Virus genome (UHGV): UHGV-1558314
DNA length: 64,000 nt
DNA from: a virus
Reading direction: 5' to 3' (one strand)
This document shows, one piece after another, positions 6,795 to 26,111 of the stretch (within the stretch, counting starts at the first letter, position 1; every line of letters begins with the position of its first letter). The notes under the pieces were generated by a model. That model saw only the letters and a program-made list of their open reading frames with translations. It was not told where the DNA came from and searched no databases. Made by a program: the position numbers and the translations under genes.

Positions 6795-6830
6795 AAAAAA
6801 ACTCCGACAGAATTGTTCTGTCGGAGTTTG
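6795..6830. terminator. Putative bidirectional intrinsic terminator
   Basis: Stem actccgacag/ctgtcggagt with aattgtt loop, flanked by A6 upstream and T-rich downstream on plus strand. Confidence 0.5.
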
Positions 6831-8908: not shown

Positions 8909-9053
8909 TTTTGTATTGCTTTGAATATCTATACACGTCTTGTCAATTTGACATGACCGCAGTCATCTGCAATTATTTAGTAGTGTGTATATGCGTAATT
9001 TGCGTTGCAATTTGTAGTCAAATCACGAACTTCATATGTTGTAGCAGACTCAT

Positions 9054-10172
9054 TCATAGTAATGATGCTTGTAAAATGTCTATAATGTGCTCATCAGTTT
9101 CACATAAATCTGTATCACTTATTATGCAATATGCAGACAATTCAGTAGATGCATTAACATATGCAGTCATTGCAGCAGCTTTTGCTATGACTATATCATC
9201 ATGCAGCCATTTAGCAGGCTTTATTTCAACAACAATTTGCGCGTTATTAAAATGCACAACAAAATCCGCGATATATACATGTGTAGCACTATTGAACACA
9301 TACTTACACCTTGCAGTTTCTATTGAATAGTGTAACTTATTGCGTTCACAAAAGTGTATAAATTTGCGTTCATTGTTTGAACGAAACGACGCTTTAGCTG
9401 ATAAACAGTATTTTGCAGTTTGAACATAGCCTCTCATGCAGTTCATAAATGGCTGCAATGACATTATGTCTCGACCATTTAACAATGCTCTATGCTGTGC
9501 TTCTGCACGTCTACGTTTAACTTCTGGTTTAGCATCTGTAATTTTGCGAGTAGCACGTATACGTTCTTTAACACCAGGTCGAGCCATGATTGCTTTTGCA
9601 GAAGCACTTCGATGCGCATGTGTTTCAGGCCTTGCGTTAGCAATTAGCATCCCATGCAATTGAGTGTCTTTAACTTCTTGACGCTGCATTGCTATTCGAG
9701 TGCTCTGTGAAATCTTTTGCCTAACTGCAGGATTTGACATTGCACGTTTTGCGCGTTCTGACGCCTTTACACGTAGTTCTGTATTATTTGCATACATGGC
9801 ACGTTGAGTATTACTAATTTTGGTGCCAATGCGTTGTTTATATTCTGCATCTGCAAAGTATTTTGCATTTCTGCATGCATGACTGCAAACATCGCCGTCA
9901 CCATAGCCACGTGTTACACACCACCATGTTAATTGCTTGCCACATATAGAACATGTTGGGATATCTGAGTCATCTTTAATTTCACATAGATATTTGTCAT
10001 ACCATTGCTTCAATGAATAGCCTACAATAGGTTCAGCCTTTCTACTAAAATACGTGCTAAATATCCATGTATCAAGTTCAGGCACGTATAACTGAAACTT
10101 TGTACGTGTTATTTGCTTAACAAATTTGTCCCAATTCTTAGCGGCATTGCGCTTAGCGTCTTCAGCAGTCAT
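9054..10172 (-). CDS. Homing-endonuclease-like protein with basic repeats and C-terminal PD-(D/E)XK-like nuclease motif
   Basis: C-terminal IADFVVHFNNAQIVVEIKP fits D...E-x-K; central lysine/arginine-rich repeat region; CxxC...CxxxC cluster near N-terminus. Confidence 0.45.
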   Translation of the reverse strand: MTAEDAKRNAAKNWDKFVKQITRTKFQLYVPELDTWIFSTYFSRKAEPIVGYSLKQWYDKYLCEIKDDSDIPTCSICGKQLTWWCVTRGYGDGDVCSHACRNAKYFADAEYKQRIGTKISNTQRAMYANNTELRVKASERAKRAMSNPAVRQKISQSTRIAMQRQEVKDTQLHGMLIANARPETHAHRSASAKAIMARPGVKERIRATRKITDAKPEVKRRRAEAQHRALLNGRDIMSLQPFMNCMRGYVQTAKYCLSAKASFRSNNERKFIHFCERNKLHYSIETARCKYVFNSATHVYIADFVVHFNNAQIVVEIKPAKWLHDDIVIAKAAAMTAYVNASTELSAYCIISDTDLCETDEHIIDILQASLL

Positions 10173-10179
10173 TAGAGCA

Positions 10180-10926
10180 TCAAATCATTCTGTTATCACT
10201 AACTGCAAAGTTGATATTGTTGTCTTTCAGATATTGCATGTACATTGCAAATACTTGTTCTGCTGTCATTTTGTTGTACTTTGATGATGGTATGAAAATT
10301 GCTTTCGACCAGTTCTCATAAGTTATTTCAATCAAACCTGTAATGCGTTCTGGAATGTATTCACGAAATGCAAACGCGCCGCCATATGGCTGTACAATTG
10401 GCGCGATTTTGTGCCAATCAACAAACACAGGTGTTTGTTCTGTTCTATAAAGCTCGCCTTTATATTTTGATGCAAATGCTCTAAAAATTGCTTCTGCAAT
10501 CACAAAGCGAACTTCAAGTGGCACAAAGTGTAAGCTTAAGCCAACAGAACGCCATTCACCAGATTGTGTGTAAAAGCCGCCCATACAAAAACATAGGGGC
10601 GTTTCGTCCCACACTGCAAGCCAATCTTTTGTTTTAGGGTCACTGTATACAAACATATACAGCTTCCCAGGCTCCATGTACTTTCTGCGAATCTGCACAT
10701 CAGGATTCGTAGCATATGATTTGAACCATGCAGCAGCTTCTCTACCACCGTTTGGCATTTTGTACCACGGATTGCTTCGAATTTCTTTGCCAAGGTCATA
10801 TTGACCAGACTTTACCAAACGATTGAATAATCGTTGTGCTGCAGTCAATATTGAACGTCCTACTGACTTCGCTTTGTCAATAAAAGACGTTTTTGCTTGT
10901 GTATCTAATGAATTAAACTTTGCCAT
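10180..10926 (-). CDS. Hypothetical protein (248 aa)
   Basis: Intact ORF with ATG start; no recognisable motifs. Confidence 0.4.
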   Translation of the reverse strand: MAKFNSLDTQAKTSFIDKAKSVGRSILTAAQRLFNRLVKSGQYDLGKEIRSNPWYKMPNGGREAAAWFKSYATNPDVQIRRKYMEPGKLYMFVYSDPKTKDWLAVWDETPLCFCMGGFYTQSGEWRSVGLSLHFVPLEVRFVIAEAIFRAFASKYKGELYRTEQTPVFVDWHKIAPIVQPYGGAFAFREYIPERITGLIEITYENWSKAIFIPSSKYNKMTAEQVFAMYMQYLKDNNINFAVSDNRMI

Positions 10927-11073
10927 ATCATCATCGTTTCGGCTTTGTGACTACGTGCCAAGCATTGCATTCTTGACACCACACAGCTCTCTTTGTTTGT
11001 TTAGCATTTAGCACTGCTTGCTTAGCTACTTCTGCATTTGCAGCAATCTTATCATAGCATTTCTTTGTGCAAC

Positions 11074-11514
11074 TCATTTGAAGAATCGTTCAGTTATGAT
11101 TTTGAACTTAACATTTTGTTGTTTGCAATATGCAATTGCGGCATTCCACTTTGCGACATTTTTGCAATATGTTTCTTTCGCATAATTTGACGCAGACCGA
11201 CTTGGGCATTGCGTTTCATGCCATGGTTTCACCTCAACGACATATGTAGAATCTGCGGTTTTGAACAAAAAGTCGGGCCAATATGTGTGCGTTACGCCAT
11301 CAAGCTCATATGCAATTGGCAGTGTCTCAGATGACCAAGCAAGAACCTTTGAACTCATATCGCAAAGCTTGCAAAATCTGAATTCAAGTGAACTGCGGTA
11401 TATGATTGTCTTGTCTGTCGCGTCTTTGCCTTTGTACTTATCTGGGTTCATGCATCTGTAGTAGCCTTGCTTGTAGGGCCCTGATTTGTTTGGCTTAAGT
11501 TGCTTAATGTTCAT
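11074..11514 (-). CDS. Small PD-(D/E)XK-like nuclease family protein
   Basis: WPDFLFKTADSTYVVEVKP resembles the nuclease motif of 9054..10172; ATG at 11512-11514 chosen over GTG at 11523. Confidence 0.4.
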   Translation of the reverse strand: MNIKQLKPNKSGPYKQGYYRCMNPDKYKGKDATDKTIIYRSSLEFRFCKLCDMSSKVLAWSSETLPIAYELDGVTHTYWPDFLFKTADSTYVVEVKPWHETQCPSRSASNYAKETYCKNVAKWNAAIAYCKQQNVKFKIITERFFK

Positions 11515-11519
11515 TGCAG

Positions 11520-11765
11520 TCACTCATTGTCAGGTTTGACGTCTTTGCAGCCAAACTTATGCACAGCGTATTCAAGACCAAGTTGTTGCAATTCTGCAAA
11601 TGTCTTATCTTGCACATATTCTTTTGGAAATCTGCCATGCCATTTACCTATCATAGGCGCACATTCTGAACACATTCGAGGCATATTCTGTAAACGTGCA
11701 GACCAATAATAGCCAAGCGCAGTGTTTTCAATTGCGCCACACTTTTCACATACAAATAAAGGCAT
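11520..11765 (-). CDS. Zinc-ribbon protein (about 81 aa)
   Basis: CEKCG...CSEC Cys pairs; start set to internal ATG at 11763-11765 to avoid 65-nt overlap with upstream gene. Confidence 0.35.
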   Translation of the reverse strand: MPLFVCEKCGAIENTALGYYWSARLQNMPRMCSECAPMIGKWHGRFPKEYVQDKTFAELQQLGLEYAVHKFGCKDVKPDNE

Positions 11766-11769
11766 AATA

Positions 11770-13149
11770 TTAGCTATTAACTTCCCACATATTGTCAATA
11801 TCAAGTACAGGCCACATTCTACGTTGAAGCTCAACTGTTTGTGACAGTTTGCCTGACTTTGTGTAGTTCCATTTCAATGCAGTGCTTATGTATTTGCCGC
11901 TCAATCGCAAATTCTTTGCATTTTGAGATACACTTGGCTGTCGCTTTGGCGAATCTGTAGCCTTTTCATCAGGTTTTGTTGGCTCTTCAAGCTTGTTCTT
12001 GATTGACCATATCTCAACGTTTAGTGTTTTGAATGCATATAGCTGGTTCAGTGTTCGTTGTAATGTGCATGACAAAATTACTCTATCAAGCATGCCTTGA
12101 GACCAATCATACATTGCAGCAGCTTCATAAAAATGCTCATGCACATTTGAGTGGTCTGGGTCTCGTTTAGCAAGTTGAATTGCAGTTTGCTCTGTATAAT
12201 CTGCAAAAGTGTCCCAAATCTTATCTGTAGATTCTTGTTTGATGACAGGCTGAGACGTCTGCACATTTATGCTTTGTTCACCCAAATTATGCTGCATTGA
12301 CACAACATTGACTGCCGATGGCCTACGCATAGACGCTGAATTGTATGTCATGCCATATTTTGTGAATCTTGACATCCAATTTTCACCATTGACATTGTTA
12401 TTCAAGATGAGCTTTTGCGGCTTTGGCAATTCTTTGCCATCAATGTTGTCAATTGTTATTGTGTCATCAAGCGGAGTCTCTTCCATTTCTGCAAACACAT
12501 CAACAATCGTCAAACGATACCAAGGGTCAATGAATGCTTTGACAACTTTGTTTTTGCCAAGCCACATATGTCGTAATACATGACGCCTAATGAAGCTTAG
12601 ATATGTTTCATTGCATTGCAGCCATGTCATTTTGTCATCTGTGCCATCGATATTTGTGACAAGGCCAAGACCTGTATCTTCGCAAATCTTCTTGATGACA
12701 TCAATGCTTGTCATGTCATCAAATGATTGAACCATTGTTTGCTTCAATGCATCATCAACAAACAAATGCGCAGAAATTCGAATGTTGCCATTGTCTTGTT
12801 CTGCATTATCAATCAAAAAGTCAGCTTTGATGACCTTGAATTCTGTGTCAGCAGTATTGCCAATGTAAAGTGTTGCAATGTCGTGTACAAGTGGAAAGTC
12901 ATTGAACATAAAGTTTGCATTGTCATTAAATGACAACTCAAATTGTGGCAAAAAGTCCTTGCCATATGACAGCTCAAAGTACTGAATTGACCCAAAGGGC
13001 ACATTCGTGTTGCACACATACACAAGTGGCACAAGTTTACCTGCAGACTTCAGCACAGATTTTGTCGAGTCTTCATTGACAGGGTCATAATTGACCATTA
13101 TGTCTCGCACTTCATCAATCAAAGTGCCCTTCAGAACTTCTTTGAGCAT
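11770..13149 (-). CDS. Hypothetical protein (459 aa)
   Basis: Long intact ORF, ATG start, TAA stop; no recognisable motifs. Confidence 0.45.
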   Translation of the reverse strand: MLKEVLKGTLIDEVRDIMVNYDPVNEDSTKSVLKSAGKLVPLVYVCNTNVPFGSIQYFELSYGKDFLPQFELSFNDNANFMFNDFPLVHDIATLYIGNTADTEFKVIKADFLIDNAEQDNGNIRISAHLFVDDALKQTMVQSFDDMTSIDVIKKICEDTGLGLVTNIDGTDDKMTWLQCNETYLSFIRRHVLRHMWLGKNKVVKAFIDPWYRLTIVDVFAEMEETPLDDTITIDNIDGKELPKPQKLILNNNVNGENWMSRFTKYGMTYNSASMRRPSAVNVVSMQHNLGEQSINVQTSQPVIKQESTDKIWDTFADYTEQTAIQLAKRDPDHSNVHEHFYEAAAMYDWSQGMLDRVILSCTLQRTLNQLYAFKTLNVEIWSIKNKLEEPTKPDEKATDSPKRQPSVSQNAKNLRLSGKYISTALKWNYTKSGKLSQTVELQRRMWPVLDIDNMWEVNS

Positions 13150-13150
13150 A

Positions 13151-13615
13151 TCAAAAGATGATTTTGCCTGCTTGCTGATTGATAATTACATGTGATGTGC
13201 TTCGCCTGTTTGCAACAATTGATGCATTTGACGCTTGTGCTTCAACTTTATCAGTTGTAGTTTTGTTGACTGTTTGCGGAACCGTTTTTGCATCTGCATT
13301 CTGCTTGTATGTCAGCACTGTTATGGCATCATATACAGAAGTCTCAGGCACAAGTAAGATGTCATCAGGCTCAAAATCAAAGGGCGATTTGCGATTATTG
13401 AATGTCATCAATTGCTCAATGCCACGTTTATGCGCATACACATATTCAGATAAGCCAATGGGATTTGCTGCATACACAGGATGCACAAGAGCAACGCCAC
13501 CAACGCCTACTGTGTCAAATTGTCTTGATTGTGTAGCTGTTATGCGTTCATCTGAGTGCAATGTAACATTGTCAAGCAATGGCATTGCAATATCATCATA
13601 ATTATCTGTGACCAT
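13151..13615 (-). CDS. Hypothetical protein
   Basis: ORF track start at 13639 is TTG; first ATG at 13613-13615 used. Confidence 0.35.
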   Translation of the reverse strand: MVTDNYDDIAMPLLDNVTLHSDERITATQSRQFDTVGVGGVALVHPVYAANPIGLSEYVYAHKRGIEQLMTFNNRKSPFDFEPDDILLVPETSVYDAITVLTYKQNADAKTVPQTVNKTTTDKVEAQASNASIVANRRSTSHVIINQQAGKIIF

Positions 13616-13850
13616 TGTTGTGATGATGTTTATGTTCAATCAAAATGAGTGTGCCTGCTTGCAATTTGAACAACTCTTGCATAACATGCATTTGCAAACC
13701 ATATTGAGTATGATGTTGTCTGTTTGCTTCAATGTCTTTTGCAAGCCATGCTTCTGATTCAGAACTTGTTGTCAAGTAGCATGACAGCGTCATTGTACTG
13801 CAGCCAATGCAACATAGTACACACATAAATGCAACAATGAGCTTTGCCAT
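13602..13850 (-). CDS. Small protein with N-terminal hydrophobic signal-like segment (82 aa)
   Basis: MAKLIVAFMCVLCCIGCS hydrophobic N-terminus; tight spacing after upstream gene stop at 13857. Confidence 0.3.
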   Translation of the reverse strand: MAKLIVAFMCVLCCIGCSTMTLSCYLTTSSESEAWLAKDIEANRQHHTQYGLQMHVMQELFKLQAGTLILIEHKHHHNNGHR

Positions 13851-13856
13851 GACAAT

Positions 13857-14480
13857 TTACGCTTTGTTGATTTCAGATGGCATTCTGAACTTGATGTCAT
13901 TGTACACAAATGTCAATGTGAATGTCATCACGTTCTGGTCTACACGAGTTTTGTCATATGTGAGTTCAGAAATTGCAGAAAACACGACATCAATGAAGTC
14001 GATGCCAAACAATGGTTTCTTTGCACCACCATATGTTGCTACAAATCTGCAAGGCTGAAAGTAGATAGTTTCACGTTTATCATTAGCGTACACAAACAGC
14101 GACTCCAAGCAACAAAAATAATTGAGCCCACCATTCGTCAATCTGCATGTCACTTGGATTCGCTTATCAAGTGCTTGATGAATTGTTTTGCTGCCCTTAT
14201 GAAACTGTGTAATCGACTTCTTCATGCCGCTGTCATCAAGAACTTTATTGACATTTTGAGTGACAATGGGCATTGATATGCCCATCAATGACACAGACTG
14301 AATTGAATCATGCAACAAGTCATTGATGTCATAAATGATTTGTGTTGGTTGTTGCACAAACACTTTATTGTATGTCTCAGCAATGTCTTGCGGAATCAAA
14401 TCAATTGGCAAGTCAAAGCGAAACTGGTCAGAACGTGTATCGAGAATGAGCATATTTTTGATAATTTGTTTATGTACCAT
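13857..14480 (-). CDS. Hypothetical protein (207 aa)
   Basis: Intact ORF; no recognisable motifs. Confidence 0.4.
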   Translation of the reverse strand: MVHKQIIKNMLILDTRSDQFRFDLPIDLIPQDIAETYNKVFVQQPTQIIYDINDLLHDSIQSVSLMGISMPIVTQNVNKVLDDSGMKKSITQFHKGSKTIHQALDKRIQVTCRLTNGGLNYFCCLESLFVYANDKRETIYFQPCRFVATYGGAKKPLFGIDFIDVVFSAISELTYDKTRVDQNVMTFTLTFVYNDIKFRMPSEINKA

Positions 14481-15736
14481 TAACTGTCATACGACCAGTG
14501 ACCACAGTCATACACTGGCACAAATCCAGTGTCAAGCATTTCTTGCTCATTAAAGTCATCATCAAGCAAGTGTTCACCCGATTTTGTATTAACCCAGTGC
14601 TTCTTAATTGTGCATTCATCAACCGCAAAGGGATTAAGTACATTGTCAGTACAGTCAATGAACGCATCATTCAAATGCGCTTCAATGATATGAAGCACAA
14701 TTTCTTGGTCGTGCCAATCAAATATCATGAGTGGCGTGTAGCCACATGCAATTGCAAGTTGTTGCTTCCACCAATGATAGTTTGGCTATTTTGCTTCTGC
14801 AGCATTTCGTTTAAAGCCATACACGCTATTATGAGTATGCGTCGGGTTAACGTCAATTAGCAGATTGCCATAATACAGGTCATATGACGTTATGCCAACA
14901 CCATGTTCAAACTCAAAATGCACACCAAGATGTTCTTCAATGTATGATTGCCACCATCTGTTTGGCGCAGATATGATTTGCCCATTTGCTTGCATACATT
15001 TATTTGTCATGCAAAACCATGGCACACCGTAACGTTCCATACAGGTTTTTGAAATTGCAGCAAGCCATTCATCTTTGTCTCTATGCGGCCATGCATAACC
15101 ATAACGCAGACGGCATGTTTGTTGAGCTTTAGCAACGATTGGCGCTAAACGTTCACCGTATATTTCACGTTTAGTTGCGATGGCTTTGCGTGGATTAGTC
15201 CATCCAGCATCACCCCATCGCTCAAGCTTCGTTTGCTGAGATTTTTCAACAATCAGTTCAAGATTCTCACCATATTTTTGACGACGAGTTTGCATTGCTG
15301 CAACATAATCTGTAATGCATCTATGGCCATACAAACGTTCTTTTGTCGCACATTGAACATCTACTGGACCTTGTGGATAGCCATAGCGTTCCATATTCGT
15401 TTGACGAATATGTGCTTTATCGCCATATGAACTGCCGTAGCGTGCAACTTTAGTGGCAATTGTTTGCTTGATGTTGCCTGCTTTAGAACCATAACGAGCT
15501 TCTTTAGTTGCTACGCATTTTTGTTTGACTTCTGCTCTGTTCCAATTATGCTCAACGCCATGTTTACGAAGATGGCCAATTTTCATGTTGTACACGTTTT
15601 TGATATGACCATGAGATGTCTTACGTGGTGCATATCGTACAAATGGTGTTTCTGCAAGCAACTTATCTCGTTCAGCTTCAAGCTCTTTAATTCGAGCTTC
15701 AAGAGCTTCACCAGTCAAAGGCTCTACATGTTTCAT
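14480..15736 (-). pseudogene. Homing-endonuclease-like repeat protein paralog interrupted by a single in-frame TAG
   Basis: ORFs 14786..15736 and 14480..14728 are in the same frame, separated by an in-frame TAG (plus-strand cta at 14786-14788). The combined product aligns along its length with the intact paralog 22976..24175 (shared N-terminal coiled coil, xRYG repeats, C-terminal FDW...YDCGH). Confidence 0.55.
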
Positions 15737-16221
15737 TCGTGTTTGCCAGTTTGAAATAACGAATCAATTGGGATGTGAATACCAGGTTTGGATTGAATGT
15801 TCCATCCGCGCGCCAAACCATTAAGTACGCAGCTCGTAAGGTAAGAAAACGCGTTTTGAGTTACTGTTGGGTCAAACATTTGCCACTTTGACGCCAAAAT
15901 TAGCATGGCTTCTGCTGCGACATCTGCTTGCAAGTCTTTGTCTCTGTAGTATAAACGTCTCTGCACATGTTTGATAAGCAACTCAAACATGTGTATAAGT
16001 TTATCTGACAGCTGCCCAGATACTTTGCATGCGCATATTTCTGCACAAAGTTCTTTGTTGTTAATGTAATAGTTTGATGGCTGACCACGTTTCTTTGTGT
16101 TTGCTGCTTCTTCACGAAGTTGGTCTTCAAGCTGTGTCAACATGTCATCATCTGACACATATTGAATATGCTTATCTTCTGGCAGTTTAGATTCTATTGG
16201 TTGTAAGTTTTGCAGTGGCAT
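15733..16221 (-). CDS. T4 gp55-like late sigma factor
   Basis: NYYINNKEL and FDPTVTQNAFSYLTSCVLN resemble recalled gp55 (NYVNNKEL; FDETKYKNPHAYITQACFN). Start placed at ATG 16219-16221 downstream of promoter box; stop overlaps start of 14480..15736 (ATGA). Confidence 0.5.
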   Translation of the reverse strand: MPLQNLQPIESKLPEDKHIQYVSDDDMLTQLEDQLREEAANTKKRGQPSNYYINNKELCAEICACKVSGQLSDKLIHMFELLIKHVQRRLYYRDKDLQADVAAEAMLILASKWQMFDPTVTQNAFSYLTSCVLNGLARGWNIQSKPGIHIPIDSLFQTGKHE

Positions 16222-16250
16222 AACAGTGAGCATTAAAATTCCTATATAAA

Positions 16251-16262
16251 TTGTACAACATG
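16251..16262 (-). promoter_or_regulatory. TTGTACAA promoter box upstream of gp55-like gene
   Basis: ttgtacaaca at 16251-16260, about 34 nt upstream of ATG 16221. Confidence 0.4.
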
Positions 16263-16287
16263 CAAAATGTTTTTGCACCATTTTGAT

Positions 16288-16356
16288 ACAACATGCATTG
16301 CATATTTGCAATGATGCAAAGTACGATGTACACAACATGCATTGCATATTTGCAAT
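16288..16356. repeat. Two direct copies of a 25-bp element
   Basis: acaacatgcattgcatatttgcaat at 16288-16312 and 16332-16356, between a terminator and the promoter box. Confidence 0.6.
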
Positions 16357-16357
16357 C

Positions 16358-16392
16358 ATAAAAAAGCTCAGCCAATTACGGCTGAGCTTTCA
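16358..16392 (-). terminator. Putative intrinsic terminator after 16438..17727
   Basis: Stem aagctcagcc/ggctgagctt (16364-16389) preceded on plus strand by A5, giving a T-run on minus strand. Confidence 0.5.
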
Positions 16393-16437
16393 TTGAGATG
16401 CAACTTTTACGTTGACAGCAAACCTAACTATGTTCGG

Positions 16438-17727
16438 TTATTCTTTTGGCAGAAGTTCAGCAATGCGTGACTGCAATTGCTCTTTCTGCTTCAAATAGCT
16501 GTCAAGAATTTGCTGATGAGCTGCATAGCCCTCTGATGTTGGGTCCATACTCTGCATTGTGACTTGAACTGCAGCAATGTCTGATTCGACATTGTTGAGC
16601 ACTGTCTGATATGCGTCGACTTGTGCAGATGCACGAATTGCAGCTTTCATTGCAGTGTCATAATGTTCGCGCCACATTGACTTGATGCATTCGATTTCTG
16701 GTGTGCTTACAGAAATTGACTGCAATGCTGCAATGAGTGCAACAATGCCGCCGTATACTGTAATGACGCCAGACTGAGTGTCAAGCATGTTGAAGTGATT
16801 GCCATCAACTGCGTATACAATGATAGGCGCAGATTGCAGCTTGACTGAATTGTCGAGAACTGCAAGCTTTGTGAACTGCTGCGCTACTGTAATGACTGCA
16901 TTGCAAATTGCCTCTGCAGTCTCAAATTCGCCTGCAACTTGCATGCTAACTTGATTGAGTTGCATATAAGTCTTGACTTTCTCAGCGAATTCAAGTGCAG
17001 TCATAACTTGCGAATCAAGCTCAACTGCATCTTGGCCAACAATGCGAACATGGCCGACAATTGTGTCAGCAAAGAATGCTTCAGTCTTTGGACAATACTG
17101 AACAAGAGACATCGCATCCATCAATGCAACAGATTCTGCAGATGGCTCAGATGCTGTAGCATACAGCAAATTACCATCAGATACAGTGAACCACTTGCCA
17201 ACTACAGGCAGACCCATGATGTCGCCTTCAATAATTGCAAGCACATGCTGGCAATCACCTGTAGCAATGATGTGCTCAGGATTTGCTGCATAGTAGATGT
17301 CTTTTGCCTGCTTAATGAGCGACTTCACCTCAGGGTACATGTCATAATTGTCAAGCACGCCATCAACTGCAATTGCTCGAATGATTGGCTCATCAGTTGA
17401 TGCAACATCTACTGCATCTTCGATTGCTGACGCAGCCCTTTGCATATTTGCAGAGCCATCACTCATCAAATCTTCCATGACAAGTGACGCCTTGAAACCA
17501 AAGCCATCTGCGCCAATTGCTGCTTTCTGTGATTTTGCAAATGCGCGTACAGCAGCATCTTTGCTATTTGCAGCGCTTTCCAAAATCATTGCAGCTTTTC
17601 GAAGAGTCAGACCAGACTTTTTGATTTGTGCAAGTGACTCATTGACAAAGTTTGCACCGCCAAAAGTCAATGCTTTGATGCCTTTGATACCTTGAACAAA
17701 TGCATCAACGTTTACAGTATGTTTCAT
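16438..17727 (-). CDS. Hypothetical protein (429 aa), possibly structural
   Basis: Intact ORF adjacent to Ig-like domain protein; no recognisable motifs. Confidence 0.4.
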   Translation of the reverse strand: MKHTVNVDAFVQGIKGIKALTFGGANFVNESLAQIKKSGLTLRKAAMILESAANSKDAAVRAFAKSQKAAIGADGFGFKASLVMEDLMSDGSANMQRAASAIEDAVDVASTDEPIIRAIAVDGVLDNYDMYPEVKSLIKQAKDIYYAANPEHIIATGDCQHVLAIIEGDIMGLPVVGKWFTVSDGNLLYATASEPSAESVALMDAMSLVQYCPKTEAFFADTIVGHVRIVGQDAVELDSQVMTALEFAEKVKTYMQLNQVSMQVAGEFETAEAICNAVITVAQQFTKLAVLDNSVKLQSAPIIVYAVDGNHFNMLDTQSGVITVYGGIVALIAALQSISVSTPEIECIKSMWREHYDTAMKAAIRASAQVDAYQTVLNNVESDIAAVQVTMQSMDPTSEGYAAHQQILDSYLKQKEQLQSRIAELLPKE

Positions 17728-17734
17728 AGTCTAC

Positions 17735-19225
17735 TTATGCCTTTTTAGATTTACGCTTTGCAGCAACTACGACTTCTGCTACGATAGCTTCTACAGTAGC
17801 TTCAGTTACAACAGACTTGTCTGCAACTTTTACAAGAGCTGCATGCAACTTGTAGTTGCCGACTTTGCTGAAAATGCACTTGAATTCTGTTGTTGCATTG
17901 TATTCTGCAGGTACTGCAAAACCACTGTCAGGACCCCATACACCACTATCTTCGAATGTCCAAGGCTGACCCTGTGAATCTGTTGCAGTGAATGTCACAT
18001 GACCATCTTCAGGTGCTTCTACAATTTCATATTGCAGCTGAACGCCATCAACACCAGCTGTGCCAACTACTTCAGTTGCAAGTGTTGCATTGATTGCAAC
18101 TTCTGTTGCAGGCTGAATGCTTGCAGGGACATCTACAGAAATCTTGTATTCTGATACTTCAGGCTGAACTGGCTCAGCAACAACTACTGTAGACTCTGTT
18201 TCAACAACTACACTGTCATCAGCAACCTTGGCAAGAACTGCATGCAATTTGTATGTGCCTGCCTTGCTAAAGATTACAGTGAACTTTGTAGTTGCATTGT
18301 ATTCTGCTGGAATGTCAAAGCCTACTGCAGGACCCCATGTGCCATTGTCGACAAACGTGTATTCCTCGCCAGTTGTGTCAGTAGCCTTGAATGTCACATG
18401 GCCATCTTCAGGTGCTTCGTCTACACCATAGCGGAACTGAACTTTGTCAACACCGACATCACCAACAGTCTTCGTTTTGAATGTTGCATCAAGCTCAACT
18501 TCAGTGTTTTCGATGATTGTTTCAGGCGCAGACATTTCAAACTCATACTCAGATACTGTTTGCACAGCTTGTTCAAGTTTGATGTTCTTTGTCTTGTTTG
18601 AAATCATAGTTTCACGACCAGCCTGGCTAACGTAGCCCTCTTTAGACACTTCCCAGACAATTTCTTCGCCTGACAAAACAGTCAACGAATTGCGAACTTC
18701 ACCATTCATCTTGACAACTGCATCTGCAGGTTCTACATTGATTGTCAGTGTAGCTTTGCTGAGCTCAACAAGCTCCACTACTTGAATGACATCATGGTTT
18801 GTGAGCGTGATTGTGCCCTCCTGAGATTCATAGCCCTCTTTCGACACTTCCCACTTAATTGGAATGCCTGCAGGCACATTCTCAAGCATCTTTGTAGCCT
18901 CACCATTGATTTCTACGTGAGCATCTTCAGGCACAGGCTGAATTGTGATGCTGAACTTATCTTTGCCAGGTTCAGGGTCTGGTCCTGGTCCTGGGTCATC
19001 ACCAGTAATTGCAGGGATGATAGTGTTTTCGATGACTTTCTGAGCTTCTGCAGTTGTGCCATAGAATTTGAGCGTTTTCTTGGCTTCTTCTACAGACATT
19101 TTCTCAAGATTGTCTGCAAGATATGTCAGACCAGTGACTGCAGCAATTTTCTGCCGCATTTCTGGGCTAATGACTACACCAGTAGATTTGACTACTGGAG
19201 CAGCTTGTTTTTGTTTCTTTGCCAT
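17735..19225 (-). CDS. Protein with tandem Ig-like repeat domains; possible capsid decoration (Hoc-like) protein
   Basis: Two ~85-aa internal repeats (PEDGHVTFKATDTTGEEYTF...YKLHAVLAKVADDSVV and PEDGHVTFTATDSQGQPWTF...YKLHAALVKVADKSVV). Start set to internal ATG (MAKKQKQ); the track start would lie inside the upstream terminator. Confidence 0.45.
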   Translation of the reverse strand: MAKKQKQAAPVVKSTGVVISPEMRQKIAAVTGLTYLADNLEKMSVEEAKKTLKFYGTTAEAQKVIENTIIPAITGDDPGPGPDPEPGKDKFSITIQPVPEDAHVEINGEATKMLENVPAGIPIKWEVSKEGYESQEGTITLTNHDVIQVVELVELSKATLTINVEPADAVVKMNGEVRNSLTVLSGEEIVWEVSKEGYVSQAGRETMISNKTKNIKLEQAVQTVSEYEFEMSAPETIIENTEVELDATFKTKTVGDVGVDKVQFRYGVDEAPEDGHVTFKATDTTGEEYTFVDNGTWGPAVGFDIPAEYNATTKFTVIFSKAGTYKLHAVLAKVADDSVVVETESTVVVAEPVQPEVSEYKISVDVPASIQPATEVAINATLATEVVGTAGVDGVQLQYEIVEAPEDGHVTFTATDSQGQPWTFEDSGVWGPDSGFAVPAEYNATTEFKCIFSKVGNYKLHAALVKVADKSVVTEATVEAIVAEVVVAAKRKSKKA

Positions 19226-19316
19226 AAGATATTGTGAATTTGGTTGTTTATTCTTAACAAAATATGTACATACAGATGCAACAGATGATATGTCAGATAC
19301 ACAAAGCTGCATAAAA

Positions 19317-19354
19317 TGACCAGACTTGCAAATAAATTTAAGCAAGTCTGGTCA
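19317..19354 (-). terminator. Putative intrinsic terminator after DNA polymerase C-terminal gene
   Basis: 13-bp stem tgaccagacttgc/gcaagtctggtca with AT-rich loop; T-run follows on minus strand. Confidence 0.45.
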
Positions 19355-19369
19355 TCAGTTTTGATTGCA

Positions 19370-20662
19370 CTACAACAATGACGGCACTCGTTGAGTTTCA
19401 AGTGGGTCGCTGACATTGATGCCTGTGTATGCAACAAGTCGTTGTATTGGGCCAAGTACGAGTTTTTCGAACATGAGTCGTTTGTTCATTGGCGGCACAT
19501 CTGGCATATACTTCGGTGTCGGCATTTCGCCTGGTGCAAAGCCAAATGCATCGCAATATTGACGAGAGCCAATTGGGATATTTGACAAATCTGACTTTGC
19601 TCTGTCAACAAAGTAGTAGAACACTCGACCGCCTTCAATCAATGGGTATCGTGTTTCCAATCCATGAGCTTTTACAAGACGATTATGCCAACAACATGCC
19701 CTGTACTGAGGCAGTACACCTTTTGCTAACTGCCATTCGCCATCATAGCTTAACACATAGTCATGATACTTGTTTGCATTGACATATGCACAAAGTTTTT
19801 CCAAGTCTTGCTCAGCTTCAAAGCGTTTCCATAATTTCTGTATGAGCTTTGGATATGTCGCAGAAGTCAATTCACCTCTGAACATTTTTTTGAATGCATA
19901 ATCAAGCATTTGCCTAACAAGCATTGATGAGCCTGTTTGAATAAGTTCGATGCCCTTACCTTGAATATGCTCAGTAGGGTCTTCAAATACTCGACCATCT
20001 ACATATATTTGAGACTTCAAATACTTTTTCTTTTGGGCAAATAATGCAGTATCAGAAATCGTCTCAAGGTCGAACATTAGCACAGAATCTCCATGACGCT
20101 TTGCAAGGTCATTTGCATATGACCTATTGAACAGTTCTTCCATACGATATTTGAATATCGCAAGAATCAAGTCATACCAATTTTTGCCTGTGTAACCAAT
20201 TGACTTAACTGTCGGCTCAAAGTGAATGTACAAAGAGTCTGTGTCAATATACAGCACTTTGTCTTCATAGGGTTCTTGCTTTGGCGACACAGACAAATCA
20301 AAATTGCCTTTCAATTTGGGGTCATTGCGCAGCTTTTCATGCAATTCATAATCACACCACCATTTATTGTTGAGATAGTCATTTGCTACTCGTTCGCCAA
20401 AGTGAATGAAGTTACGCCCTTCTGCAGTAATTGATTCTGCAACTGCCATATTGAAGAAGTGATAGAATCGATTACTTGTCGCACCATAAATACTGTTCCT
20501 TAGTGTTTTGAACGTCACCTGCAATGACGCATGTTTAAGCGACTCTTGTATTGCAAAGCCACGTAATTCAAATAGACGCTCAGTAGACAACTGACTCAAA
20601 TCGCCAGTTAAATCTACTCCATCTATTTCAATTTTTGACATGTCTATCTGAGCTTCTGCCAT
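19370..20662 (-). CDS. Family-B DNA polymerase, C-terminal fragment (motifs B and C)
   Basis: KTLRNSIYG (motif B, Kx3NSxYG) and YIDTDSLY (motif C, YxDTDS). ATG start, TAG stop. Confidence 0.8.
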   Translation of the reverse strand: MAEAQIDMSKIEIDGVDLTGDLSQLSTERLFELRGFAIQESLKHASLQVTFKTLRNSIYGATSNRFYHFFNMAVAESITAEGRNFIHFGERVANDYLNNKWWCDYELHEKLRNDPKLKGNFDLSVSPKQEPYEDKVLYIDTDSLYIHFEPTVKSIGYTGKNWYDLILAIFKYRMEELFNRSYANDLAKRHGDSVLMFDLETISDTALFAQKKKYLKSQIYVDGRVFEDPTEHIQGKGIELIQTGSSMLVRQMLDYAFKKMFRGELTSATYPKLIQKLWKRFEAEQDLEKLCAYVNANKYHDYVLSYDGEWQLAKGVLPQYRACCWHNRLVKAHGLETRYPLIEGGRVFYYFVDRAKSDLSNIPIGSRQYCDAFGFAPGEMPTPKYMPDVPPMNKRLMFEKLVLGPIQRLVAYTGINVSDPLETQRVPSLL

Positions 20663-20684
20663 AAGGTATCTTATTTAATTATTA

Positions 20685-20724
20685 TTGTACAACACACATT
20701 GCAATTTTGCAATATGTGTGTTAA
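20685..20724 (-). promoter_or_regulatory. Promoter box plus adjacent palindrome upstream of polymerase C-terminal gene
   Basis: ttgtacaaca at 20685-20694 followed by near-palindrome acacacattgcaa..ttgcaatatgtgtgtt. Confidence 0.35.
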
Positions 20725-20758
20725 ACAAAAATGCAGCAGCAGAACATCTGCTGCTGCA
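20724..20758 (-). terminator. Putative intrinsic terminator after 20802..21629
   Basis: Stem gcagcagcag/ctgctgctgc (20733-20757), loop aacat; A-run on plus strand upstream gives T-run on minus. Confidence 0.5.
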
Positions 20759-20801
20759 TCGGCAGGTATCTTCACATGTATTTGAGTTGATTACGATGTG
20801 A

Positions 20802-21629
20802 TTAGAATGGCAGGTCACCATCGTCACCTGCAGCGCCAAATTCAGCTGCAATGTCATATACCAACGTCATTGCGATTCGCAAATCGCGCTTCTTAGACTT
20901 CAGGCGCATGATATCATGACCAGAATTGTTTGTGATGACTGAACATTCAAACTCTTCATTGCCATCAATAAATGACAACATTGATTTGTGAATTGTGATT
21001 GGCGATAAATCAGATGGGTAATTTGCATCAATCACATATTCAAAGTTGTTGTTCTTGGCAATTAGTCCTCGTTCAGTCGTACGAATCTCAATGCCGGGCA
21101 ATTCCTTATCACCAGTATTCAATGAGCCATACGATGACATGATGCCAAAGTGATTTGACGTCAAATCGAGTTTTCTTAGATTTGTTGTGCTGTCAAACAA
21201 CATTGACATATCATTGTCAGACAGCTCAAAGTAGCCAAGTGATGGCATTGAACAAACCTGATTGATTTTGAGCTGATTGTTTGAGATTACAATGAGCTCT
21301 GCAATTGTATCTGTGCCAATTTGTTTGACATAGATTTCAATCATTGCAGATGAGCCAAATGCAGCAAGTACTCGATTGTTAAACTGTGTGCCGTTGTAAA
21401 TGAGCGCCTTGACTGTGACATCTTTGAGCGTCGACTCATAATGCTCACAAATATCAAGAACATTGAGCGTCTGTGATTTTACAAAGCTGCTGTTGCCAGC
21501 ATCAGTTCTGATTCGCTGGTCATTAAGTGAAAAGCTAAGCTTGCCATCGCACTTTAATGATGATGCAAACAATGCTCGCAGCATATCAATGTTTGCATTG
21601 CGTAACGTAATTTTGTTCAAAGTTTCCAT
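20802..21629 (-). CDS. Hypothetical protein (275 aa); weak resemblance to a sliding-clamp-like processivity factor
   Basis: Sits between polymerase fragments; acidic C-terminus ending DDGDLPF. Function not supported by motifs. Confidence 0.25.
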   Translation of the reverse strand: METLNKITLRNANIDMLRALFASSLKCDGKLSFSLNDQRIRTDAGNSSFVKSQTLNVLDICEHYESTLKDVTVKALIYNGTQFNNRVLAAFGSSAMIEIYVKQIGTDTIAELIVISNNQLKINQVCSMPSLGYFELSDNDMSMLFDSTTNLRKLDLTSNHFGIMSSYGSLNTGDKELPGIEIRTTERGLIAKNNNFEYVIDANYPSDLSPITIHKSMLSFIDGNEEFECSVITNNSGHDIMRLKSKKRDLRIAMTLVYDIAAEFGAAGDDGDLPF

Positions 21630-21697
21630 CTTGTATCTATGTTGTTGATTTTCAATTTAATATATTGAACAACATTTGTTGACATTTTGCAACATTG

Positions 21698-22072
21698 TCA
21701 TCGATTGTCGCCTGACCCATGCAGTACGCCTCGTAATTTTCGAGACTGTAGTTTCTGAATGTTAAGCTGACAAATGTCAGTTAAGCTGTAGCCCAAATCA
21801 TGTGCAAGAGTTGCAGCATACCACATGACATCGCTAAGCTCTTTTGCGATTTCCTTGCGAATGTCTTCATTGTCAAAATCACCATTCTTGTCTCGAATGA
21901 CTTTTTTGACTTTGTCTGCAACTTCGCCTGCTTCACCCGTCAAGCCAAGCGTTGGATAGACAATTGCAGCTGATTTAGGATACACTGCGCTATCAAGTGC
22001 AGCAGTCTGATATTCATCAATGGTTGAAATACAAGTGTGGTCAATTACACCATGTTCATCTCGTTTAAGCAT
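21698..22072 (-). CDS. MazG-like nucleoside triphosphate pyrophosphohydrolase
   Basis: All-alpha NTP-PPase signature (LTGEAGEVADKVKK ... ELSDVMWYAATLAHDLG). Confidence 0.55.
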   Translation of the reverse strand: MLKRDEHGVIDHTCISTIDEYQTAALDSAVYPKSAAIVYPTLGLTGEAGEVADKVKKVIRDKNGDFDNEDIRKEIAKELSDVMWYAATLAHDLGYSLTDICQLNIQKLQSRKLRGVLHGSGDNR

Positions 22073-22073
22073 A

Positions 22074-22565
22074 TCATTTACGTTTTTGTTTGACTCTTAA
22101 TCGTTTTTGCATAAATGCTCTTGTAGCTTCACCAAAAGCCATCTCGTCTCGTTCGCCACCACAAAGCTTTGCAAGCTTATTGAATGTGTCTTGGTCAATC
22201 ATTGTGTACGTTGAGTTGTTGACCACATGCAATGCAAACTGAATCAGCGGTGCGCCTGGCTGCAAGCAGAACGGCTCTTTGCCCGCATTGTACACTGCAA
22301 GATGAATCTCGCCATGATAGTCTGAATCTACAAACTCACTTGTTTTGATGATAAGATGATTTCGTGAAATGCCCGACTTATTGTAGGCAATCAATGCATG
22401 ACAGGCAGGCACAAGTGCTTTGATGCCAGATGGAATTGCAATGCCCTCACCAGGTTGCAGCATTGTTTGCACAAAATCATTGGGTATGCAAAAGTCCCAT
22501 GCGCCAGATTCTGCTGTTGACTTAAAAGGACTTTCTACATTTCTGCATTTTGCAAAGAATAACAT
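22074..22565 (-). CDS. dUTPase / dCTP deaminase family protein
   Basis: VDSDYHGEIHLAVYNAG resembles trimeric dUTPase motif GxIDxDYRGE. Confidence 0.5.
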   Translation of the reverse strand: MLFFAKCRNVESPFKSTAESGAWDFCIPNDFVQTMLQPGEGIAIPSGIKALVPACHALIAYNKSGISRNHLIIKTSEFVDSDYHGEIHLAVYNAGKEPFCLQPGAPLIQFALHVVNNSTYTMIDQDTFNKLAKLCGGERDEMAFGEATRAFMQKRLRVKQKRK

Positions 22566-22588
22566 ATTAAGTATGTGTTTGTATGTTG

Positions 22589-22933
22589 TTAGTACATTTC
22601 TCGTTTAACAAGAGCTTTGCGTTTTGAGCGTAACCCTGCCCTATTACGTAATTCTACTGACCAATCACGAATCATTTGCCATGCAATCCCACCACGTTGA
22701 ATACCACCGTGCTTGAACATTTCATTGCAAATACCTTGAATAAACACCGCATCAGACTTTGTCAATGCGTCAACAATTTGACCATGGTTGTCTTCTGTCT
22801 TGACATCATTACAGAGCTTAAGTTCATCTACTGAAAGTTCGCCAAGCAGCTCATAGTAGTATATGAGAGCTTTGCGTGCGGCAATTGCTTTTCTTGAATT
22901 GCCAGAATAAGACAAAGTTACATGTTTGCTCAT
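22589..22933 (-). CDS. Hypothetical protein (114 aa)
   Basis: Track start at 22939 is TTG; ATG at 22931-22933 used. Confidence 0.35.
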   Translation of the reverse strand: MSKHVTLSYSGNSRKAIAARKALIYYYELLGELSVDELKLCNDVKTEDNHGQIVDALTKSDAVFIQGICNEMFKHGGIQRGGIAWQMIRDWSVELRNRAGLRSKRKALVKREMY

Positions 22934-22949
22934 ATTCAATTATTGTTAT

Positions 22950-22972
22950 TATATGTTGATATTGTACAACAT
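22950..22972 (-). promoter_or_regulatory. Recurrent promoter box (coding-strand ATGTTGTACAATATCAACATATAAT)
   Basis: Plus-strand tatatgttgatattgtacaacat; TATAAT-like element ~10 nt downstream of the box on the minus strand. Confidence 0.45.
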
Positions 22973-22975
22973 GTG

Positions 22976-24175
22976 TTAACTTTTTGCATGACCACAATCA
23001 TACACCGCAACATAGCCAGCATCAATCATCTCTTGCTCATCTTGTCCGCAATCTTCAATATGTTCTTTTGTCTTCAAATGACACCAGTGTTTGCGAATTG
23101 TTGACTTGTCATCTGACAATTGCGGATTGAGTGCGAAGTCAGTTGAGTCTACTGGTTCACCTGCAAGATGCTTTCTAATGACATCAATGACAACATCAAA
23201 TGGCATCCAGTCAAACACTGTAATGCAAGTGTAGCTGTGTTTGATAGCAAGTTGTGTTTTGTTAAAATGGTTGTCATATGGTCGTTGCCAATTATGATTT
23301 GCATTGAACACAATATTTGCAAAACTACGCGTGCTATTATGAGAAATAGTTGGGTTAAGTTCAATTAGCAACTTATGCGATTTGCAAACAATGTCATATG
23401 ACAATGACGTGTTCTCAAATGTAAATTCTTGCTCAAAATGCACATCAAGGTTATCAAATAGCATGTTAAGCCTTGTGCATATTTTTGTATTGTGTGCAGA
23501 CTTTGCTTTAGATTTTGCTCTGCATTGAGGCAATTGGCATGGCCACACTACACCATGACGTGACAATGTTGTTGCACGAATTGCGTCAAGATTCGTTGAT
23601 GGATTGCCATATCGAGCTATTCGAGTTTGCCTTGCTTTGTCTATATTGCCTGGGCCTGCATTGCCCCATCGCTGCAACTTTGTTTGTCGAGCTTGTTCAT
23701 GATTGCTGTAATATGGGTCTCCATATCGTTCAAGCTTTGTTTGCTTTAACTTACTCATGTCGCCAAGCCCATTGCCATACTTAGCACGCTTTGTTTCTAT
23801 GCCTTTCTTTAGATTGCCTCGTTTGTTGCCATATTTTGCAATGTTGTGTGCATTACGTTTTTCAATGTCACCAAACCCATTGCCATATCGTGCAAATTTT
23901 GTTGCTTGCGCTTTTTCAAAATTGACTGCTAATGTGCCATAACGAGCATACTTAGTTGCTTTGCCCTTATCAACGACTTCTTTACGATGCAATGCAGCTT
24001 CAACACCATATTTTCGCAAATTTGTAATTTTTGCATTGTATCGTCGTCTAATTGTTGCATGAGTGTTGTTACGAGACCCTGTTCTGACATATTCAGTTGC
24101 AGCAAGTTCAGCATCACGTAACTGCTCAAGTTCTGCAATTCGTTGTTCAAGTTCAGCGCCTACAAGTGGTTTCAT
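22976..24175 (-). CDS. Homing-endonuclease-like protein with ~18-aa basic tandem repeats (intact paralog)
   Basis: About eight repeats of K-x-x-A-T-K-x-A-R-Y-G-N type; N-terminal coiled coil; C-terminal YDIVCKSHKLLIELNP resembles a PD-(D/E)XK-like core with N in place of K. Located between the two DNA polymerase fragments. Confidence 0.45.
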   Translation of the reverse strand: MKPLVGAELEQRIAELEQLRDAELAATEYVRTGSRNNTHATIRRRYNAKITNLRKYGVEAALHRKEVVDKGKATKYARYGTLAVNFEKAQATKFARYGNGFGDIEKRNAHNIAKYGNKRGNLKKGIETKRAKYGNGLGDMSKLKQTKLERYGDPYYSNHEQARQTKLQRWGNAGPGNIDKARQTRIARYGNPSTNLDAIRATTLSRHGVVWPCQLPQCRAKSKAKSAHNTKICTRLNMLFDNLDVHFEQEFTFENTSLSYDIVCKSHKLLIELNPTISHNSTRSFANIVFNANHNWQRPYDNHFNKTQLAIKHSYTCITVFDWMPFDVVIDVIRKHLAGEPVDSTDFALNPQLSDDKSTIRKHWCHLKTKEHIEDCGQDEQEMIDAGYVAVYDCGHAKS

Positions 24176-24183
24176 GTGTTGTT

Positions 24184-25689: not shown

Positions 25690-25700
25690 ATTATTATCTT

Positions 25701-26111
25701 TTAGAATAGAGATATTGTACAACAATTTGATTCAGGTTGCCATTCTACAATATGCGCATCAAAGTGTTTGTTAAGCCAATGTGCAAGTATGTGTCTATGA
25801 CAAAATGCAGATGGTCTGCACCAACATAACAATACAATGTCTCGTTCGCCTGCAAAAATCTTTATGCGATGCAGCATCAAACTTATCTGTGACAATGCAG
25901 CGTCAAGTTTTGCTGCATATTGCTCTGCATATTGTGCATTGTCAAGCAAGCCTGCTTTATGCAAACGAACAAGTGACATGTAATCAGGCATGACGTCAGT
26001 CCATGTAAAATCTGCTATGAAGCCCTTAGGCTTTGTTGCAGACACTTGAACAAGAAATGCGTTATCAGGCAGATGCCTGCATGCATAATATGAAGTCAAG
26101 ATTCTTGTCAT
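25701..26111 (-). CDS. Small protein with C-x-x-x-x-C-H-R motif (DUF488-like?)
   Basis: LLCWCRPSAFCHRHILAHWL; family assignment from memory only. Confidence 0.3.
   Translation of the reverse strand: MTRILTSYYACRHLPDNAFLVQVSATKPKGFIADFTWTDVMPDYMSLVRLHKAGLLDNAQYAEQYAAKLDAALSQISLMLHRIKIFAGERDIVLLCWCRPSAFCHRHILAHWLNKHFDAHIVEWQPESNCCTISLF
25711..25726 (-). promoter_or_regulatory. Promoter box upstream of polymerase N-terminal gene
   Basis: attgtacaaca at 25714-25724, embedded in the 3' end of the upstream gene. Confidence 0.4.

Follow-up and report, generated by a model that had tools for sequence, protein, structure and literature searches.

A 64 000-nt stretch of the virus genome UHGV-1558314 (here called the window), from a phage that is known only from metagenomes and is distantly related to T4, very probably carries free-standing homing endonuclease genes, one of which has been interrupted by a very recent nonsense mutation. 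Two of these genes, at 22976..24175 and 14480..15736, encode paralogous repeat proteins, and the second of them contains a single in-frame TAG; a third gene, of a different build, is found at 9054..10172. The initial annotation had grouped these three and a fourth open reading frame (ORF), 11074..11514, into one family of homing-endonuclease-like proteins. All four ORFs are present on the minus strand. The family assignment stands for the two repeat paralogues, on the grounds of build, predicted fold and mobility, and 9054..10172 can be retained as a mobile gene, but the assignment fails for 11074..11523 (the same ORF from an earlier start), which to judge by its sequence is the gp4-type head-completion gene of the phage.

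The DUF7487 repeat proteins

The gene at 22976..24175 (minus strand) is intact and encodes a 399-aa protein with a long helix at residues 6–26, eight DUF7487 repeats of 18–19 aa (residues ~62–208; 23552..23992), a predicted Vsr-like nuclease domain (residues ~222–337; 23165..23512) and a small β module (residues 338–399; 22979..23164). Its interrupted counterpart at 14480..15736, also on the minus strand, spans 418 codons. The proposed paralogy of the two was borne out by BLASTP, which aligned them over their full length, across the stop, with 39 % identity (240 bits, E 6e-80). The basic repeats of ~18 aa that had been noticed in both were likewise recovered: [R/K][Y/W]G anchors recur every 18–19 residues, giving eight regular units in the 399-aa protein and nine to 10 in the interrupted one, and the repeat region contains 32 Lys and Arg residues against 13 Asp and Glu in 160 residues. 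The repeats belong to DUF7487 (PF24308), which was matched with 36.0 bits by the 399-aa protein and with 40.4 bits by the 418-codon read-through (gathering cut-off 27); these matches are confined to the repeat region and lie outside the C-terminal domain. A literature search on DUF7487 found no paper. Of the putative shared N-terminal coiled coil described initially, one long helix (residues 6–26) was reproduced in the structure model with a predicted local distance difference test score (pLDDT) above 90.

The repeat consensus, derived from 170 units in 24 homologues, is N-x-x-K-x-x-x-T-K-x-x-R-Y-G-N-x-x-G. Within the units, variation is almost absent at K, T, K, R, Y and G and is found at the remaining helix positions. 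The number of units ranges from 5 to 11 across homologues, and alleles of the same locus differ by exact 57-nt insertions or deletions (indels), each equal to one repeat unit. A speculative and fairly unlikely possibility is that the array is a modular solenoid that reads DNA, with each 18–19-aa helix–loop unit contacting one step of the target. The variable helix positions of each unit would then contact the DNA, with K, T, K, R, Y and G, which do not vary, serving to hold the backbone, and the gain or loss of whole units, as in the 57-nt indels between alleles, would retarget the nuclease. If this were the case, the DUF7487 family would offer a naturally occurring scaffold for DNA binding that could be re-programmed and that is fused to a compact Vsr-like nuclease.

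Further members of the family were found close by. A third intact DUF7487 paralogue is located in the same genome just to the right of the window (L011 3045..4181, 378 aa), where it and the stop of the gene upstream overlap. In a relative's copy of this gene (L008 5001..6167, 388 aa), the final 290 nt are 84 % identical to window 22982..23271, which indicates that C-terminal modules are shuffled among the paralogues. A 412-aa paralogue in the related locus L007 carries at its 3' end (10330..10424) three tandem 33-nt copies encoding LLADDCGHVK, of which one copy is present in a remnant in the window (see below), and protein P0008 has a similar C-terminal duplication.

Fold and motif of the C-terminal domain

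An AlphaFold model of the 399-aa protein, based on 26 sequences (mean pLDDT 77.5), comprised an N-terminal helix hairpin, 12-residue helices joined by loops of 6–7 residues, an α/β domain (residues 245–337) and a small β module (residues 361–393). When the PDB was searched with Foldseek, the top match was the catalytic domain of I-Bth0305I, the prototype of the EDxHD endonucleases (probability 1.0, TM 0.66 on target), and further matches included Vsr (0.92), AbaSI and the DUF559-type protein 3hrl. Structural matches in BFVD were to phage endonuclease-like, homing endonuclease and DUF559 proteins, among them a 'homing endonuclease' of Campylobacter phage CP21. A nuclease fold of the Vsr/I-Bth0305I type is predicted for the C-terminal domain from these model-based matches.

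The catalytic residues of I-Bth0305I are E170, D196, N208, H213 and D222, with an extra acidic residue at the position of Vsr F62 (PMC3239194). Conservation of 90 % or more across 93 diverse relatives of the C-terminal domain was found for S226, N229, E250, D261, E272, P275, H279, Y302, H303, K306, A310, D322 and W323. The pattern D261-x12-N274-x4-H279, with E272 two residues before N274, has the same spacing as D196, N208, H213 and the acidic residue of I-Bth0305I. N229 and H303 seem to take the places of the initial Glu and final Asp of the motif, as mapped by spacing and secondary structure and not by superposition; Asn229 occupies the first motif position in at least 90 % of the 93 members.

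The C-terminal domain family is large, with 424 cluster representatives at E ≤1e-3 among 1.84 billion proteins. DUF7487 was present in 80 of the 93 relatives scanned, a few of which also possessed a Mom-like domain that is absent from the window proteins. Only one of the 93 touched DUF559 (E 5e-4), and an NCBIfam search of the domain returned nothing useful. Profile searches of the repeats and the C-terminal domain had been suggested as a check on the nuclease assignment, and their outcome was divided: the repeats were identified as DUF7487, but the C-terminal domain was linked to nucleases by its predicted fold and not at the level of sequence.

Most of the distant relatives of the domain (P0023–P0026, L010 2105..4096 and the A4 consensus) are longer proteins with N-terminal zinc ribbons, and in these a Mom-like (PF25680) domain is inserted between the nuclease domain and a final KHW..N..YDCG module. 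The window proteins seem to have kept only the tail of this Mom-like domain.

Mobility of the genes

Exact presence or absence between close relatives was found for both 22976..24175 and 9054..10172. In L009, a 174.6-kb IMG/VR contig that is ~95 % identical to the window, the stop of the N-terminal half of the split DNA polymerase gene polB is followed by 4 nt and then the spacer of a 116-aa gene; in its place the window has 1234 nt (22950..24183) with the 399-aa gene. The 372-aa gene at 9054..10172 (9061..10176 in the comparison) is absent from L001 and L007, which instead possess a 412-aa DUF7487 gene ~70 nt further on in the spacer between the gp2 and portal genes. A 44-nt remnant (LADDCGHVKLTRRV*; 8929..8972, minus strand) of the 3' end of this other DUF7487 gene, which is intact in L007 (412 aa), was detected in the window: window 8972..8893 is identical to L007 10381..10460 at 80 of 80 nt, a segment that spans the end of the 412-aa ORF (L007 9186..10424). 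The remnant, at the site of the intact gene of L007, represents the footprint of a lost copy. In the gp2 gene, residues ~100–235 form a divergent mosaic patch relative to related phages (57–84 % sliding nucleotide identity, window 10200..10800), with identical sequence at both ends. Co-conversion from a foreign donor would be expected to leave such a patch beside the 372-aa gene.

The genes are free-standing, in that they form ORFs of their own in spacers between conserved genes and do not lie within an intron or intein. An intron- or intein-borne endonuclease was considered and rejected, as no Rfam family reached its gathering score in the window. All four ORFs had been described as tightly following a core gene, which is correct for three of them: the 399-aa gene starts 8 nt after the stop of the polB N-terminal half, the interrupted gene overlaps the gene for a gp55-like sigma factor by 4 nt, and the 372-aa gene is separated from the gp2 gene by 7 nt. 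The description does not suit 11074..11523, which is itself a core gene. For 14480..15736 we infer mobility from its paralogues.

The 372-aa gene and the gp4 gene

The free-standing gene at 9054..10172 (minus strand) encodes a putative nuclease of 372 aa with a Cys-rich N terminus, basic helical repeats and a TnsA/gp4-like PD-(D/E)XK core bearing the motif E...D...VEIKP. The protein matched PHROG 15427 'endonuclease' (E 7e-10), and its match to the Pfam family Tn7_TnsA-like_N (23.4 bits, E 9e-5) fell below the cut-off of 26.5. It therefore resembles the TnsA-like family whilst remaining short of curated membership. The only homologues in the database were in the cluster of its own sequence (100 % identity, two members).

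The PD-(D/E)XK core noticed in both 9054..10172 and 11074..11523 is indeed shared, as BLASTP aligned the two proteins with 34 % identity over 59 residues (E 2e-8), including the D...VE[IV]KP motif. The second gene (11074..11523, minus strand) encodes 149 aa from a GTG start or 146 aa from the ATG at 11514. It exceeded the same Pfam cut-off by a wide margin (67.1 bits, E 2e-18) and matched PHROG 218 'head closure' with E 1e-36. The distance to the gp2 homologue downstream is 147 nt, and the only thing in between is a 48-aa ORF called in some relatives; the gene is kept in every relative that covers the site (L001, L002, L005, L007 and L013). The PHROG match, the position near gp2 and the presence in all of these relatives speak for a core gene in place of the homing-endonuclease-like insert that had been proposed. 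From its sequence, the product of 11074..11523 is a T4 gp4-type head-completion nuclease, an ordinary orthologue with no difference of note from T4 gp4, which happens to have a nuclease fold in common with the 372-aa protein.

The in-frame TAG of 14480..15736

In the 418 codons of 14480..15736 the TAG at 14786..14788 (minus strand) is the sole internal stop, and the frame then ends with TAA at 14480..14482. Homology continues on both sides of the TAG, as initially reported: the 101 codons downstream, taken alone, match residues 303–396 of the paralogue with 47 % identity (E 2e-28). As written, the gene specifies a 316-aa product (14786..15736, minus strand), and an 82-aa ORF could start from the ATG at 14728 (14480..14728, minus strand).

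The codon is CAG (Gln) in every intact allele that was read, so that the TAG differs by a single C-to-T transition. In DNA alignments, CAG was found at this position in L001–L003 (91 % nucleotide identity) and in L007 (99.4 % identity upstream of the codon). The 15 listed members of the 90 % protein cluster comprise 13 intact proteins (415–418 aa), all with AEAKQPNYHWW at the TAG site, one 399-aa allele that is one repeat shorter and one 316-aa form. The nearest intact allele, P0036, differs from the read-through of the window gene at two residues besides the Gln. In comparison with L001, the ratio of non-synonymous to synonymous substitution rates (dN/dS) was 0.04 before the TAG and 0.08 after it, which implies that the whole frame was under purifying selection until recently and that the lesion is too young for decay to have set in. 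Three origins had been offered for the TAG, namely a pseudogene, a sequencing error or programmed read-through. With Gln in all intact alleles and the nearest of them only two other residues away, the first is favoured: the TAG would be a very recent CAG-to-TAG nonsense mutation in one strain, and the gene an incipient pseudogene.

A sequencing or assembly error, with CAG in the true genome, is highly improbable. It would account for the single-base difference from the intact alleles, and the ENA and Logan contigs with the TAG match the window at every overlapping position (100 % identity) and may derive from one read set. However, the same base was present in at least three differently built assemblies (ENA k119_42272, 175 395 nt; ENA ZEEV15-1 scaffold_201, 113 549 nt; Logan ERR1136818), and the identical 316-aa protein is entered in JGI/IMG, in a record whose longest contig measures 175 564 nt. 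Deep short-read assemblies, moreover, seldom carry a wrong consensus base at a single site.

The position of the TAG suggests what the interruption would do to the protein. In the alignment with the 399-aa paralogue it falls near residue 298, immediately ahead of helix 302–312, on which the conserved H303 and K306 are located; the core strand 316–321 (ITVFDW) is also encoded downstream. The 316-aa product keeps the N-terminal helix, the repeats and three nuclease strands. It lacks the last core strand, the C-terminal module and the His/Lys helix, which forms part of the predicted active site. On the structure model it has probably lost the ability to cut and retained the ability to bind DNA.

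The same gene was found to be broken independently in L004 (954..2155; Logan SRR20627582), ~13 codons upstream of the site of the TAG in the window. The lesion there is the loss of 1 nt, for which an A-run is the simplest placement; if one base is put back, the frame is open again and the linker length is unchanged. The L004 gene consists of a 298-aa ORF and the same 82-aa ORF, which is intact; in its 5' part it is a divergent allele, and over its 3' part it scarcely differs from the window. The linker around the TAG is also where recombination has joined variable 5' parts to a common 3' module. Two breaks are too few for a hotspot, the chance of such proximity being ~0.07 by our estimate.

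The L004 break also bears on the idea that the split form is itself selected, with the 316-aa fragment, alone or together with the 82-aa ORF, acting as a non-cutting DNA binder that might be a repressor or a shield of target sites against related nucleases. We consider this very unlikely. The second break so close by, again with the 82-aa ORF intact, would fit it, and between the two broken alleles the 3' part shows five non-synonymous versus seven synonymous differences (dN/dS 0.15). There are, however, only these two cases, with the chance of proximity just given; the low dN/dS may have arisen before either lesion; intact alleles form the majority; and the Met with which the 82-aa ORF starts belongs to a conserved core strand and is also found in intact alleles.

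TAG as a stop codon in the window

The window is tiled by ORFs under the standard code (code 11), with stop usage in its 69 long ORFs of 31 TAA, 29 TGA and nine TAG. The earlier statements that TAG is a true stop elsewhere, at 19370 for instance, and that wholesale reassignment is unlikely both agree with these data. The TAG at 19370 ends the C-terminal half of polB, and the next in-frame stop follows four codons on; 14480..15736 is the only ORF with homology across a TAG. The median distance to the next in-frame stop was 53 codons after TAG versus 8–9 after TAA and TGA. The read-on after the eight other TAG codons consisted of junk or, after a complete thymidylate synthase gene, of a separate membrane-protein gene, and the profile alignments of the polB C-terminal half and of a 1101-aa protein end at their TAG codons. 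Recoding of TAG to Gln (code 15) was rejected because the extensions are junk or a separate gene, the profiles end at the stops and the ORFs tile. After six of the nine TAG stops the next base is C, and the long read-on after TAG could be explained in individual cases only.

A search for suppressor tRNAs had been recommended and was carried out with ARAGORN over the window and flanking loci, 82 kb of the 175-kb genome, where no tRNA was found. Programmed read-through gained no support from this or any other result. It is very unlikely that the TAG is read through even at some level, by a suppressor tRNA(CUA) of phage or host or by a near-cognate tRNA-Gln, to give a full-length protein with Gln. 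The nonsense codon would in that case throttle a possibly toxic nuclease and not kill it. Such read-through would be consistent with the ancestral Gln codon, Gln being the residue inserted by TAG-recoding phages, with the C that follows the TAG, with the 3' part that stays open for 101 codons free of a second lesion, and with the occurrence of distant homologues in TAG-recoded Lak phages. UAG-C is a weak stop context in Escherichia coli termination, and a suppressor tRNA gene might lie in the 93 kb of the genome outside the scan. Read-through is opposed by the lack of tRNAs in the 82 kb that include the window, by the eight other ORFs that end at TAG with extensions of the kind described, and by the rarity of the allele, which is two residues from an intact one, so that the missing decay reflects its youth. 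The recent nonsense mutation accordingly remains the favoured origin of the TAG.

Proposed life cycle of the endonuclease genes

The repeat proteins may work like endonucleases of the EDxHD/Hef type, although they are not proven members of these groups. The N-terminal helix would serve for dimerization, the basic array of eight to 10 DUF7487 helix–loop repeats would bind the DNA target, and the Vsr-like domain would cut a genome without the copy near the insertion point. In a mixed infection, repair of the break from the copy-bearing genome would copy the gene together with some of its flank. The 372-aa gene, in the gp2–portal spacer, would be a third mobile gene of different build, in which basic repeats are combined with a gp4/TnsA-like PD-(D/E)XK core. 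The interrupted copy would mark the beginning of the decay phase in the life cycle of a homing endonuclease gene.

Several points weigh against this explanation. Nuclease activity, target sites and homing are, for all members, predictions from sequence and model. The link to EDxHD and Vsr proteins depends on the predicted structure, with its mean pLDDT of 77.5, and on motif spacing, as searches for the C-terminal domain among solved structures in the PDB and nuclease families in Pfam gave no match, whether made from single sequences, from the domain profile or from the full profile. At the locus of 14480..15736 no empty site was seen among seven related loci, all of which are occupied. Values of dN/dS as low as 0.04–0.08 would not usually be expected of a gene that is purely selfish and fixed in its position, and they hint at some benefit to the phage. 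As for the TAG, the assemblies that carry it may all stem from one sample, in which case their agreement would rule out an assembler artefact but not a problem at the level of the reads, and the scan for suppressor tRNAs reached 82 kb of the genome, with 93 kb outside it.

For the annotation of this genome, the results would mean that the TAG is recorded as a fresh loss-of-function allele and not as recoding, that 11074..11523 is renamed gp4, and that the three other genes are listed as free-standing homing-endonuclease-like genes. A single phage lineage would display successive stages in the life cycle of such endonucleases: insertion, an intact copy under purifying selection, a first inactivation and a leftover footprint. 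DUF7487 would acquire a concrete, testable role as the DNA-binding repeat array of a family of Vsr-like homing endonucleases. The findings otherwise represent ordinary phage biology; they do not challenge what is known and would not surprise a phage specialist.

Comparison with known systems

The window proteins share the predicted Vsr-like α/β nuclease fold of I-Bth0305I (PDB 3r3p; PMC3239194), with no detectable sequence similarity and with Asn229 and His303 apparently in place of the first Glu and last Asp. They further differ in the use of a DUF7487 repeat array for DNA binding, where I-Bth0305I has NUMOD/helix–turn–helix motifs, in the extra C-terminal β module, and in that their genes are free-standing and not intron-borne. 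Hef of phage U5 and the Hef-like F-LimIII, F-LimVII, F-LimVIII and F-LimX of LIMEstone1 (PMC3296691, PMC2988022) can be likened to them by description only. To the extent that these two sources describe them, the Hef-like genes of T4-related phages are, like those reported here, free-standing, located beside conserved genes and present in several copies per genome. A statement in the I-Bth0305I paper assigns Hef-like endonucleases to the Vsr-like family (PMC3239194).

The T4 Seg and Mob endonucleases and the naturally defective I-TevIII (PMC2988022, PMC2790892) resemble the window genes in their location in short spacers between essential genes, in presence or absence between relatives, in co-conversion of flanks and in the natural occurrence of inactivated copies. 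The catalytic families of Seg and Mob, GIY-YIG and HNH, are different from those of the window genes. The position of the 399-aa gene at the junction of a split polB is paralleled by seg43(25) at the split gene 43 of Aeromonas phage 25 (PMC2988022), except that four more genes (for a 116-aa protein, dUTPase, MazG and a 275-aa protein) are found between the polB halves in the window and that the endonuclease family is a different one. Since a relative has the polB split without the 399-aa endonuclease, this gene probably invaded an already split polymerase.

When 50 697 phage records were searched by tblastn, the only matches to the repeat proteins were genes of Asteriusvirus and Lak phages, all within the repeat region and below 30 % identity. 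Among cultured phages the closest counterpart was WAE77138.1, an 'endonuclease domain-containing protein' of Escherichia phage ph0011 (Asteriusvirus). It matched DUF7487 with 135.8 bits, and this region is followed by D...IEFNG..WHN...KHQDK...IHIYEDEW, which aligns with the C-terminal domain described here (hhalign E 0.004). WAE77138.1 differs in its length of 664 aa, in being less than 30 % identical and in having the canonical G-x-x-W-H form of the motif.

Genome context and other features

A search of the 50 697 phage records for similar DNA gave no match, and sequence identical to the window was found in metagenome contigs of ~175 kb. To judge by its name alone, one of the records (ZEEV15-1) may come from the human gut. 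Nearly all of the long ORFs are on the minus strand. Marker genes of T4-like phages in the window include those for the portal, a gp2-like DNA end protector, a gp55-like late sigma factor, a prohead protease and polB.

The family-B DNA polymerase is split, with its N-terminal half at 24184..25725 (minus strand; PHROG 2062, PHROG 262 at profile positions 111–490 of 856, and tblastn matches to phage polB) and its C-terminal half at 19370..20662 (minus strand; PHROG 1918, PHROG 262 at profile positions 505–842 of 856), the TAG stop of which is genuine. The best phage relatives of polB by tblastn were Chryseobacterium phages MA9V-1 and MA9V-2 (36 % identity), Tenacibaculum phages and Sphingomonas phage PAU. 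The two halves are 3.5 kb apart, and the genes between them encode the 399-aa endonuclease, the 116-aa protein, dUTPase, MazG and the 275-aa protein. In Chryseobacterium phage MA9V-2 (L006) polB is split likewise, with three other genes, including TnpB, between the halves. As MA9V-2 shares it, the split is old, and the gap is one that gathers mobile genes.

The gene for the gp55-like late sigma factor (15733..16359, minus strand; PHROG 234, E 2.7e-8) has a stop that overlaps the start of the interrupted gene (ATGA). The gene for the gp2-like DNA end protector (10180..10926, minus strand; PHROG 429, E 1e-29; Pfam Phage_T4_gp2) is located directly upstream of the 372-aa gene. The T4-type late promoter TATAAATA occurred at one site in the window, which is not above chance.

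Three further regions of the window are variable or unusual in structure. Window 13602..13850, with an 82-aa ORF, is mostly missing in L007 (68 % alignment gaps over 13601..13800); no ORF is called at this place in L001 or L007, and a 71-aa ORF is called in L004. The gene for a protein of 525–536 aa at 17735..19345 has an internal duplication (17820..18055 versus 18219..18454, ~71 % nucleotide identity); the protein is tagged with the Pfam family Head_fiber_dimeric in contig tables and has no PHROG match. In the 1316-aa ORF at 1612..5562 the match to prohead protease is limited to the first ~240 residues, with the other ~1070 unmatched. Between the protease and portal genes, three plus-strand ORFs of 222, 88 and 111 aa (5708..7123) form the only sizeable block on the opposite strand.

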